Part shown: piece after piece, positions 465 through 6,144 of the stretch
Layout of the letters: the number at the start of each line of letters is the position of its first letter
Position numbering within the stretch: position 1 is the first letter of the stretch
Virus record (IMG/VR): IMGVR_UViG_2667527806_000009
Direction: 5' to 3' (one strand)
Source: a virus
Lineage: Duplodnaviria > Heunggongvirae > Uroviricota > Caudoviricetes
DNA: 6,312 nucleotides
Position numbers and translations under genes: made by a program
Notes under the pieces: model-generated
Told to the model about the DNA's origin: nothing
Database searches by the model: none
The model's input: only the letters and a program-made list of their open reading frames with translations

Positions 465-490
465 AACAAAAAACCCGCCGAAGCGGGTTT
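465..490 (-). terminator. Rho-independent terminator at the 3' end of the hok transcript
   Basis: Minus-strand hairpin CCCGC-TTCG-GCGGG (plus 474-487) followed by a U-tract (minus strand GGGTTTTTTGTT), 70-90 nt downstream of the hok stop codon. Confidence 0.7.
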
Positions 491-557
491 AGTGCGGGTG
501 CGTTGAGGATGCCTGACACATGAGAGGTGGCGAGGGATTTCTCCCCCGCCTGGTCTC

Positions 558-713
558 TTACTCCTCAGGTTCGTAAGCTGTGAAGACAGCGACCTCCGTC
601 TGGCCGGTTCGGATTCGTACCTCGCAGAGGTCTTTCCTCGTTACCAGTGCCGTCACTATGACGGTTAAACAGATGACGATCAGGGCGATTAACATCGCCT
701 TTTGCTGCTTCAT
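558..713 (-). CDS. hok: Hok/Gef family type I toxin, 51 aa (HokD/RelF-like)
   Basis: Translation MKQQKAMLIALIVICLTVIVTALVTRKDLCEVRIRTGQTEVAVFTAYEPEE has the Hok family layout: one N-terminal transmembrane helix and the conserved C-terminal periplasmic segment with Cys. AAGGAG lies about 9 nt upstream of this ATG. Confidence 0.85.
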   Translation of the reverse strand: MKQQKAMLIALIVICLTVIVTALVTRKDLCEVRIRTGQTEVAVFTAYEPEE

Positions 714-770
714 AGCCTGCTTCTCCTTGCCTTTCGGCACGTAAGAGGCTAACCTACATTTGTGAGACAT
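558..770 (-). CDS. mok-like upstream reading frame (in-frame N-terminal extension of hok, 70 aa)
   Basis: ATG at 768-770 within the conserved hok leader, at the position where the mok frame starts in characterised hok/sok loci. Here it is in frame with hok. Whether it is translated as a separate modulator is not determinable from sequence. Confidence 0.35.
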   Translation of the reverse strand: MSHKCRLASYVPKGKEKQAMKQQKAMLIALIVICLTVIVTALVTRKDLCEVRIRTGQTEVAVFTAYEPEE

Positions 771-895
771 AGATTGGGCCTCAGATTAATGTTAAGCGTC
801 TTGCAGGACGCGTAATGTTAACTGGGGCTTTTCTCTGTCTGCCTTACAGTGGCATGCCCGAGGCAGACAGCCTCAAGCACCCGCAGCAATCTTAC
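714..895 (-). promoter_or_regulatory. hok mRNA 5' leader (sok target, translation-control stem-loops)
   Basis: Minus-strand leader begins near GGGTGCTTGAGGC and contains paired segments (plus 835-843 CTGTCTGCC with 862-870 GGCAGACAG). A diverged second copy lies at 2868-3014. Confidence 0.6.
760..838 (+). ncRNA. Putative Sok-like antisense RNA (copy A)
   Basis: Plus-strand segment antisense to the hok leader and mok start, with a candidate promoter (TTGCCT, 17 nt, TAACCT at 727-755) and ending near GGGGCTTTTCTCT. Boundaries are approximate and by analogy to plasmid R1 hok/sok. Confidence 0.35.
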
Positions 896-1051: not shown

Positions 1052-1088
1052 AAAAACCCCGGACCATCAATCCGGGGTTTTTGTTTGT
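1052..1088. terminator. Bidirectional rho-independent terminator
   Basis: AAAAA-CCCCGGA-CCATCAA-TCCGGGG-TTTTTGTTTGTT: a 7-bp GC-rich stem flanked by an A-run and a T-run, immediately downstream of the last gene of the minus-strand operon (stop at 1168). Confidence 0.75.
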
Positions 1089-1167
1089 TAACCCCAACGG
1101 CAAATCGAATACACCACCAGCGCCACCGCCATCGCAATTCCTACCGTGGTGAATGCCTCAGGCCAGG

Positions 1168-1533
1168 TCATTGATTCACCTCCTGCGGTGGTTCCGGTAG
1201 CGGCATCCAGTGAGTTGAGCTCTCTACTTCAACGCCGTCTTTGTCCACAAAAGCCATCTTATTCCCGCCACGAGTGGGGCAAAAAACCTTATCCCAGGAA
1301 CCGGGGAATACATTCCCGAGATCATCGAGAAGAATCACATCGCAATATTCAGCAGGAACTGCATCACTACAGCTTATCCAGCCAGCCAGAGTTACCGGAG
1401 AGTTGCCAGCCTTACGCATGGCCATTTCCACGATTTCAACCATATCTCCTGGTGGAATTTTACAAAGTTGCCCAATACATTTCTGCTGCCTGGCATATTC
1501 GAGAATGTGCTCCAGTTTGGTTCGATTAATCAT
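1168..1533 (-). CDS. Hypothetical phage protein, 121 aa
   Basis: Minus-strand ORF with GGGAG about 7 nt upstream of the ATG; its start overlaps the upstream gene stop (TAATG), indicating translational coupling. No family recognised. Confidence 0.7.
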   Translation of the reverse strand: MINRTKLEHILEYARQQKCIGQLCKIPPGDMVEIVEMAMRKAGNSPVTLAGWISCSDAVPAEYCDVILLDDLGNVFPGSWDKVFCPTRGGNKMAFVDKDGVEVESSTHWMPLPEPPQEVNQ

Positions 1534-2866: not shown

Positions 2867-2867
2867 T

Positions 2868-3014
2868 GTAAGAGGCTAACCTACATGTGCAAAGCATGAA
2901 ATTGGCCTCAGATTAATGTTAAGCGTCTTGCCGGACGCGTAATGTTAACTGGGGCTTTTCTCTATCTGCCTTTTGGTGTTCATGCCTGAAGCAGATAGCC
3001 TCAAGCACCCGCAG
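2868..3014 (-). promoter_or_regulatory. Second hok-type leader (hok-B) with mok-like start, truncated by the gap
   Basis: About 147 bp alignable to 741-886 at roughly 85-90% identity by eye. A mok-like ATG at 2895-2897 (minus) opens a frame (MLCTCRLASY...) that runs into the N gap. Confidence 0.6.
2887..2965 (+). ncRNA. Putative Sok-like antisense RNA (copy B)
   Basis: Homologous to the copy-A antisense segment, ending near GGGGCTTTTCTCT; the expected -35 region would fall in the N gap. Boundaries approximate. Confidence 0.3.
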
Positions 3015-3067
3015 TCATTCTACTTACCTCGCCAATATGAAATCAATCAGAAAGGTGCCCCATAAAA

Positions 3068-3754
3068 TCACTCCTTCTCTTCTTTACCGTAGTGGAGTTG
3101 ACCAATTTTGATAAGAGGGCGTCCCTGAGATTTGCGGTGTAGATTGGTATCGCGCAGAGAATACACACAGCCACAATATTCCTGCTGATAGAATTTTTCG
3201 CGCTTGCTGATTTCAATCATACGGGACGAGCCGCCCTGCTTGCGCCAGTTATAATCCCAGTACACCATGCCCGGATAATGCGCGACGGCTCGCCGCCCAC
3301 AGTCGTTAACCTGCTGCATATTTTTCCAGCGTGAAATGCCCAGTGAACTGCTGATCACACTGAAACCATTTTCAGCGGCGTACAGCGCTGTCCGCTCAAA
3401 ACGCATGTCAAAACACATGGTGCAACGGATCCCTCGTTCGGGCTCCCATTCCATTCCTTTGGCTCGTTCAAACCAGTTGTCTGTGTCGTAATCAGCATCA
3501 ATAAACGGCACGCCGTGTTGTTCAGCAAAGCGAATATTCTCATCCTTACGAATTAAATACTCTTTCTGAGGATGAATGTTCGGGTTGTAGAAAAAGATGG
3601 TGTAGTCGATTTCCGAGGCCTGAAGCGCCTCCATCACCTCACCGGAACATGGAGCACAGCAAGAGTGCAGTAGTAGTTTGTTTGCCCCGTTTGGGAGCTC
3701 CAATTTGGGCCGTTTGAAATCAGCAACTGTCATAAATATGTTTATTGAGGTCAT
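3068..3754 (-). CDS. queH: Epoxyqueuosine reductase QueH family protein (DUF208), 228 aa
   Basis: Translation carries the QueH/DUF208 signature Cys motifs: [11 protein letters not shown] near the N-terminus, [14 protein letters not shown], and C-terminal EYCGCVYS. No clear SD before the first ATG, so the exact start is uncertain. Confidence 0.8.
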
Positions 3755-3815: not shown

Positions 3816-3885
3816 CCGCCCTTTCGGGCGGTCTCCTGATGATTTGAGGGTGCAGAAATCCCTCCGGTTAAGGATTAAATTTTTA
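3816..3885. repeat. 70-bp structured direct repeat, copy 2
   Basis: Identical to 2787-2856, same orientation, offset 1029 bp. Sits in the intergenic space between the 3902 stop and the queH start. Confidence 0.9.
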
Positions 3886-5505: not shown

Positions 5506-6144
5506 TTACCCCCTGAAGCCTGGCGGGATCGCACTGTCCGGCAACGAGACGGTGTTAACCTGTCGGAGCAACGTCTCAGGCCGAACACCTTTCGGCGCGA
5601 ACAGGCCCTGGTATTCATTGGCGATGCTGTGTCGAATCACCTGCTCAGGTGTAAAACCCTGCTGACGGAATTTTTCCAGTTCCCGTATCGCCCCGTTAGC
5701 GCCCAGCTCCGTTCGAATCGGTTTTCGCAATGCCTGCCTGAACTGGACCCACTCATGCCAGAGTGTTTCTGACAACCAGTCGGGCAGATCAACTGACAAC
5801 GGGTCAAATTTTTTCTGGCGAACAGCCCCACCGATAACCAGAATTCCCTGCTCGGTGTGCCTTGCGATATCACTGCGCCGCAAGACACATATCCCGGTTT
5901 CAACAGCACCGATTTTGAGCAGTGATTTCTGTCGCGGAGAATTTCGGTCAAGCTCGATCCCACACCGGACACCGTTCCTGTCAGTCACGACGATATCAAT
6001 CCGCCCTCCGCAACCGTCACCACGCTCTGGCACCGGATACTCACGACAGACATCCAGGCCAGCAGCCTGCAACGCAACCACCGCAGAATTACAAAATTCC
6101 GCTGCAGTACCGCCAGATAATCTCCCCTCAAGCACTCCAGCCAC
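5506..6144 (-). CDS. Putative phage replication initiation protein (O-like/YdaU-type), 212 aa
   Basis: GTG start; it is the first ATG/GTG/TTG in a frame open back to 6289. Function inferred from its position upstream of the DnaC-like loader (6-nt gap) and a helical C-terminal domain; family not confirmed. Confidence 0.55.
   Translation of the reverse strand: MAGVLEGRLSGGTAAEFCNSAVVALQAAGLDVCREYPVPERGDGCGGRIDIVVTDRNGVRCGIELDRNSPRQKSLLKIGAVETGICVLRRSDIARHTEQGILVIGGAVRQKKFDPLSVDLPDWLSETLWHEWVQFRQALRKPIRTELGANGAIRELEKFRQQGFTPEQVIRHSIANEYQGLFAPKGVRPETLLRQVNTVSLPDSAIPPGFRG

Follow-up and report, generated by a model that had tools for sequence, protein, structure and literature searches.

In the hok mRNA of plasmid R1, the 5′ tac element pairs with the 3′ fbi element when the message is inert, and the ucb element conceals the mok Shine–Dalgarno (SD) sequence (PMC9841398, PMC4147584). 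A second well-described system, hokW-sokW of Sp5, is a functional type I toxin–antitoxin (TA) module that depends in part on RNase III and Hfq (Takada et al. 2021, PMC8621323). Upon mitomycin C treatment, sokW RNA vanishes and HokW appears in a RecA-dependent manner, and deletion of hokW-sokW halves phage release (PMC8621323). HokW, which belongs to the subfamily of the toxin described below, is ~44% identical to R1 Hok (PMC8621323). Genes of the hok type are found in almost 80% of Enterobacteriaceae genomes and are enriched in prophages (bioRxiv 10.1101/2025.08.07.668861). In Escherichia coli K-12, the hok loci are described as inactivated, with intact ones in other strains (Pedersen & Gerdes 1999, as cited in PMC1635323).

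The stretch of viral DNA analyzed here (the window, 6,312 nucleotides) carries a member of this family. With a probability of roughly 93%, positions 468-882 of its minus strand correspond to an intact hokD-type (hokC/hokD/hokW subfamily) hok/mok/sok type I TA module in the nin region of a lambdoid prophage. The module is identified as a complete HokD-type TA because the sequence, profile, structure and comparative evidence agree. The element itself is already known: it is represented in Rfam, in Pfam, in PGAP annotation and in recent surveys, and a copy 92% identical has been characterized. The original prediction had proposed a complete hok/sok-type locus within a prophage, with a structured leader, a mok-like start, a gene for a 51-residue HokD-like peptide and a tetraloop terminator on the minus strand and an antisense Sok-like segment on the plus strand, and every one of these parts was found in its place and on its strand. 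The interval that it gave, 465-895, covers the whole transcription unit and the −10 element of the likely hok promoter, but the weak putative −35 element (912-917) falls outside.

The closest characterized relative is found at the hokW position of Stx2-converting phage I; for this comparison, that locus was taken as the counterpart of Sp5 hokW-sokW. It shares ~92% DNA identity with the window over 400 nt, and its ORF-33c (70 aa, an in-frame mok) is identical to the Mok/Hok of the window at 63 of 70 residues (90%). Subfamily, architecture and a lambdoid prophage as host element are common to hokW-sokW and the window. The differences lie in the C-terminus of Hok (TAYEPEE in the window, VDYESEK in Stx2 phage I), in the terminator region, and at several positions of the Sok 5′ tail and mok start. 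With R1 hok/sok (parB), the window shares the Rfam leader family, the Pfam toxin family, the order of the elements and the logic of tac/fbi and ucb/dcb pairing. In contrast to the window, where mok and hok share both frame and stop codon, the R1-type mok runs in another frame and terminates within hok; the Sok hairpin is also longer in the window than in the R1 type, and the replicon is a prophage rather than a plasmid. The hokC/mokC/sokC (gef) locus is ~75% identical to the window in DNA sequence over most of its length and has an in-frame mok, the same tac and the same fbi position. However, its Sok hairpin is ~18 nt shorter than that of the hokD type, and hokC is a core-chromosome locus, whereas the window copy is prophage-borne.

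The hok coding sequence, taken from the open reading frame list, occupies 558-713 on the minus strand and encodes a 51-residue peptide (MKQQKAMLIALIVICLTVIVTALVTRKDLCEVRIRTGQTEVAVFTAYEPEE). This peptide is identical to HokD/RelF of E. coli K-12 MG1655 (b1562) at 51 of 51 residues (100%) and matches Pfam HOK_GEF (PF01848) with 82.9 bits against a cut-off of 22 (E = 1.2e-23). An NCBIfam search returned only Hok and HokA matches below cut-off, that to the Hok subfamily reaching 48.5 bits against a strict cut-off of 73, and did not match the HokD equivalog. The HokD peptide is toxic in assays (bioRxiv 10.1101/2025.08.07.668861), and the product of the window copy would presumably be toxic as well. 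The Tyr47 codon of hok, UAC, lies within CUUACGAA (570-577, minus strand) in a UACG context, as in the anticodon loop of tRNA-Arg; TadA-mediated A-to-I editing in the UACG context, with recoding of Tyr to Cys, has been reported for hokD (bioRxiv 10.1101/2025.08.07.668861).

Reading of the sequence places the hok SD, AAGGAG, at 723-728 of the minus strand, which is also where homology to K-12 hokD starts. The mok reading frame (558-770, minus strand, 70 aa, also from the open reading frame list) begins with an ATG at 768-770 and shares its stop codon with hok, such that Mok is an N-terminally extended Hok. Eight nucleotides upstream of this ATG lies GAGG (779-782), within the mok SD region CUGAGGCC (777-784, minus strand). 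The in-frame arrangement is common to annotated MokC and MokW; at an R1-type plasmid locus used for comparison (L060), mok is out of frame and stops inside hok. With the frame shared in this way, the details of translational coupling may not be those of the R1 type.

Upstream of the toxin gene, positions 708-882 of the minus strand match Rfam RF01794 ("sok antitoxin, CssrC") from end to end (model positions 1-157 of 157) with 118.1 bits, where the gathering score is 59 (E = 2.9e-27). This family is in practice a model of the hok mRNA leader, with sok encoded antisense within it, because the matched strand is the one that codes for Hok and the match stops at the hok start codon. As controls, an R1-type plasmid hok scored 106.6 bits, and the 5 kb around K-12 hokD gave no match. 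Based on position 1 of the Rfam model and the family-wide conservation of GGGUGCUUGAGG, the hok transcript would start at G882. A putative hok promoter lies at 889-917 on the minus strand, composed of a −10 element, TAAGAT (889-894), and a weak −35 element, TAGCGT (912-917), separated by a 17-nt spacer. A consensus promoter scan of 380-1120 picked up neither this promoter nor that of sok, so both are placed by homology only.

The elements that define an R1-type hok mRNA are all present. From the 5′ end, all on the minus strand, these are the conserved tac element GGGUGCUUGAGG (871-882), which pairs with fbi in the minimum free energy (MFE) fold and with ucb in the Rfam consensus; the ucb or anti-SD box AAGCCCCAG (822-830), which pairs with the mok SD region in the full-length MFE fold and with tac in the Rfam consensus; and the dcb element AGCCUCUUAC (741-750), which is predicted to pair with the mok SD when the mRNA is open, through the Rfam consensus stem GAGGC...GCCUC. 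Beyond the coding sequence, a 3′ untranslated region (UTR) hairpin GGCGGGGGAGAAAUCCCUCGCC is predicted at 529-550, and the fbi element CCUCAACGCACCC (496-508), complementary to tac with a duplex energy of −21.5 kcal/mol, lies 49 nt past the stop codon. An intrinsic terminator spans 468-490, with a stem formed by AAACCCGC and GCGGGTTT (471-490), a UUCG tetraloop and six T residues that run to 468. In R1 hok mRNA, destabilization of the 3′ hairpin lowered mRNA stability (PMC9841398), and the hairpin at 529-550 would correspond to this stabilizing hairpin by position. Matches of the hok 3′ UTR to isrK (468-549, minus strand; 30.6 bits, with a gathering score of 50), and to rsmX and other Rfam families in the hok 3′ UTR and in a terminator at 981-1089, scored well below the gathering scores. 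All were taken as chance, and those of the hok 3′ UTR to isrK and rsmX were probably driven by a hairpin-plus-terminator shape.

The predicted full-length hok mRNA (415 nt, 882→468 on the minus strand) folds with an MFE of −175.4 kcal/mol and a z score of −7.9, and none of 100 shuffled sequences folded as well. In this closed form, nucleotides 1-12 (871-882) are paired with 496-508 in the 3′ UTR, and the GCCCCAG of ucb is paired with CUGAGGC, which contains the mok SD. Upon removal of the last 41 nt, the 5′ end is predicted to be released and to refold locally. In the open form given by the Rfam consensus alignment, the GGG-GCUU of tac pairs with the AAGCCCC of ucb, and the GAGGC of the mok SD pairs with the GCCUC of dcb. 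Both sets of pairings are fold predictions, from MFE folding and from the Rfam consensus, respectively.

Conservation of the tac–fbi pairing was examined in a family set obtained by scanning one genome per species, which returned 53 Hok-encoding loci, 49 of which were scored for this pairing. In nearly all loci, the hok ATG is preceded at a distance of ~143-170 nt by the tac motif, which is conserved at this spacing in the filtered loci from six genera, and a complementary segment is found 45-56 nt past the stop codon in 46 of the 49. Loci with this complementarity come from Escherichia, Kluyvera, Photorhabdus, Pantoea, Erwinia and Citrobacter, and include compensatory changes (GGGUGC/GCACCC versus GGGCGC/GCGCCC, and GAGG/CCUC versus GAGA/UCUC). 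Across 24 distinct tac+fbi pairs, 99.3% of the cells of the outer 6-bp helix are paired, a share that drops to 25-58% once the partner is shifted by 1-3 columns. Position 4 of the helix is U-A in 13 sequences, C-G in 8 and U-G in 2, and none of 500 shuffles reached the observed covariation score. As this covariation rests on a single variable pair, it may be read as supportive rather than strong on its own. Three genome loci, found in E. coli and Shigella, carry exactly the leader of the window.

On the plus strand, opposite the leader, the 75-nt stretch 764-838 folds into a long hairpin flanked by a free 5′ tail and a UUUUCUCU tail, with an energy of −33 kcal/mol and a z score of −5.6. The Sok RNA is predicted to be ~74 nt in length (763-836, plus strand), with a 5′ tail at 763-776, a hairpin at 777-829, a U-rich tail at 829-836 and putative ends, and shows full complementarity to the mok SD and start. 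Upstream of it, at 727-755 on the plus strand, is a segment that we take to be the sok promoter by positional homology with the R1 sok promoter; it consists of a −35 element, TTGCCT (727-732), a 17-nt spacer and a −10 element, TAACCT (750-755). This −10 element agrees with the consensus at only three of six positions, and the promoter-like block is conserved in the family alignment. A YUNR U-turn was also considered for the target loop of Sok. The loop here reads CUCACAA, yet the motif was present in 7 of 13 distinct family hairpins by crude loop predictions, and it was dropped as evidence.

The stretch that encodes the Sok tail and the mok start, 764-778 of the window (mRNA nucleotides 105-119), is the most variable part of the leader among 10 distinct hokD-type loci. 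In this small sample, its mean pairwise difference is 0.35, compared with 0.11 overall and 0.00-0.03 in the bins directly upstream. A second leader in the window, described below, differs from the first at ~9 of 22 positions at the Sok tail, and its hairpin body is nearly identical. Within the limits of the small sample, this variability suggests that antisense specificity has diversified among co-resident copies.

The hokD locus of the K-12 Qin prophage resembles that of the window in its identical Hok (51/51), in the presence of rem downstream and in its position ahead of Q. The two DNA sequences are nearly identical from the hok SD through the coding sequence into the 3′ UTR, the K-12 sequence that was compared ending inside fbi. 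The alignment begins exactly at the hok SD, AGGAGAAGCAGGCUAUG. In contrast to the window, the K-12 locus is without tac, ucb, mok start, dcb, sok promoter and sok gene; relBE takes the place of the leader, the sequence upstream of the SD being relE, and RF01794 is not matched. Because homology begins only at the hok SD, K-12 hokD is read as truncated at its 5′ end and fused behind relBE. By this comparison, Qin holds a derived, truncated hokD and the window the intact form, in agreement with the published view of the K-12 hok loci as inactivated. The original prediction had pointed out that relBE does not precede hok here, and the genes upstream are indeed those for DUF551, a hypothetical protein, HNH and DUF4014. 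The contrast with K-12 that it drew is correct, but is not peculiar to the window, whose arrangement is the common one.

As a whole, the window corresponds to the replication-to-nin segment of a prophage of the lambdoid (Qin/Rac-like) type, and its genes all lie on the minus strand. They encode, in order, a YdaU-like replication initiator (212 aa, 5506-6144), a YdaV/DnaC-like ATPase, a DUF977 protein, a small zinc-ribbon protein, QueH, DUF4014, HNH, a hypothetical protein, DUF551, Hok and Rem. At the position of the YdaU-like frame, the two closest complete genomes (L001, 8230-9429, and L057, 6166-7365) carry a YdaU-family replication-initiator pseudogene that is annotated in two pieces. In the two closest complete genomes, genes for DUF1367, DUF1364 and DUF1133 come after rem, along with tRNA genes in one of them, and the prophage immunity region lies on the opposite side. 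The synteny of replication genes, hok, rem, ydfU, rusA and Q is kept in phage mEp460, in PPompW/Stx2a phages and in Qin. Between DUF551 and hok, a 27-aa hydrophobic reading frame (MTWPEAFTTVGIAMAVALVVYSICRWG, 1088-1171, minus strand) overlaps the DUF551 stop codon (ATGA) and is followed by a strong bidirectional terminator hairpin (1051-1083) that separates hok from early-operon transcription. A similar coding stretch is present upstream of hok in Stx2 phage I.

Full-length copies of the locus, defined as matches to at least 80% of the 431-nt query, were found in 5368 of 5426 complete E. coli genomes, where they are annotated as hokD or mokC; the median is 4 places per genome with all matches counted. 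The query also matches 110 phage records, with names that include HokD, MokW, host killer and "phage maintenance protein", and 1455 plasmid records.

The second hok/sok leader (2867-3023, minus strand) lies directly after queH, scores 92.2 bits against the Rfam sok model and shares ~90% identity with the first. Its sequence stops at AGCCUCUUACA, where a run of 10 N (2857-2866) begins; beyond that run, a 70-nt segment (2787-2856) exactly repeats 3816-3885, a terminator module upstream of queH. In complete genomes, the 70-nt segment occurs in two cassettes, in which a gene for a hypothetical protein and the repeat are followed either by queH and a complete hok or by DUF4014, HNH and further genes through DUF551 to hok. 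Strain FDAARGOS_944 carries both types in separate prophages. The window junction, in which queH, a partial hok leader, the 70-nt repeat and DUF4014 follow one another, was found in none of the 5426 complete E. coli genomes, and none of these has the two cassettes in tandem; the best partial match, A37, consists of non-collinear pieces. The break coincides with the final base at which the queH-linked hok type and the first copy differ (A versus G). The truncated leader is probably a scaffold join of two prophage types, formed from two contigs that each ended at an inter-prophage repeat; a true recombinant that left an orphan hok leader and sok is less likely. The queH gene itself (epoxyqueuosine reductase QueH, 3068-3754, minus strand; Pfam E = 2.6e-65) appears as cargo between the replication genes and the truncated leader, and in other E. 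coli strains queH and hok commonly form a cassette.

As judged from its homology to the R1 system, the locus very probably acts as follows. The weak promoter would yield a stable hok mRNA of ~415 nt, in which tac is clamped to fbi and ucb hides the mok ribosome-binding site, such that neither ribosomes nor Sok could bind. Slow 3′ trimming would then take off fbi, allowing the 5′ end to refold onto ucb and the mok SD to shift into an SD/dcb target hairpin. Short-lived Sok would pair across the mok start, blocking translation of mok and the coupled translation of hok and marking the duplex for RNase III. Once the supply of Sok is stopped, Mok and Hok would be made, and the 51-residue Hok would insert into the inner membrane and collapse it.

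By analogy with Sp5 hokW-sokW, the most likely role of the module appears to be that of an aid to lysis and phage release on induction, a role slightly favored over addiction or abortive infection. Post-segregational killing (PSK) and T4 exclusion, to which the original prediction had appealed, are best regarded as extrapolations from plasmid R1. If addiction were the main role, cells that lose or excise the prophage would be killed after segregation, as with R1. Such a role, which we consider unlikely, would fit the R1 paradigm (PMC4147584), the prophage enrichment of hok (bioRxiv 10.1101/2025.08.07.668861) and the "phage maintenance protein" label of some phage records, but an integrated prophage is lost rarely compared with a plasmid, no experiment is known to demonstrate PSK by a prophage-borne hok, and chromosomal hok loci, even intact ones, are reported to have given none (Pedersen & Gerdes 1999, as cited in bioRxiv 10.1101/2025.08.07.668861 and PMC1635323). 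That last observation would also suit a structurally intact but silent relic, hitch-hiking on recombining lambdoid modules like the chromosomal hok loci of K-12, as would the poor consensus matches of both the hok and sok promoters. A relic of this kind is nevertheless very improbable: all regulatory elements are intact, the tac–fbi pairing is kept by compensatory change across genera, the reading frame is unbroken and encodes a peptide identical to one shown to be toxic, and a 92% identical locus is functional (PMC8621323). Moreover, the Sok tail is variable and its flanks invariant, which does not resemble uniform decay.

Defense of the lysogen by abortive infection, in which a superinfecting lytic phage such as T4 shuts off host transcription and thereby depletes Sok and releases Hok, is likewise doubtful as the main role. 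On a high-copy plasmid, R1 hok/sok cut T4 plating by 42% and made plaques ~85% smaller (Pecota & Wood, as cited in PMC8621323), an effect that, in that account, is modest and confined to high copy number, and hok is not enriched near defense systems (bioRxiv 10.1101/2025.08.07.668861). A more speculative proposal, in our estimation quite unlikely, is that the module serves lambdoid prophages as an induction sensor through antiterminated read-through past the terminator at 1051-1083 once the prophage is induced. The hok gene is co-oriented with the early-right operon, from the replication genes to Q, and sok is head-on to it. Read-through could silence the sok promoter by transcriptional interference and could give 5′-extended hok transcripts that are unable to form the tac–fbi lock. 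If true, this proposal would account for both RecA-dependent changes in Sp5, the disappearance of sokW RNA and the appearance of HokW (PMC8621323), and the hypervariable Sok tail would keep co-resident prophages from silencing one another.

For the favored reading, an intact hokD-type module that may aid lysis and phage release, the main practical use is in annotation: the window displays the ancestral complete form, of which the K-12 Qin prophage keeps only a relBE-fused stump. It also assigns the locus to a conserved slot, with the replication genes on one side and rem and Q on the other. As for the role of prophage-borne hok/sok, the window copy would serve as a test case as well as any other.
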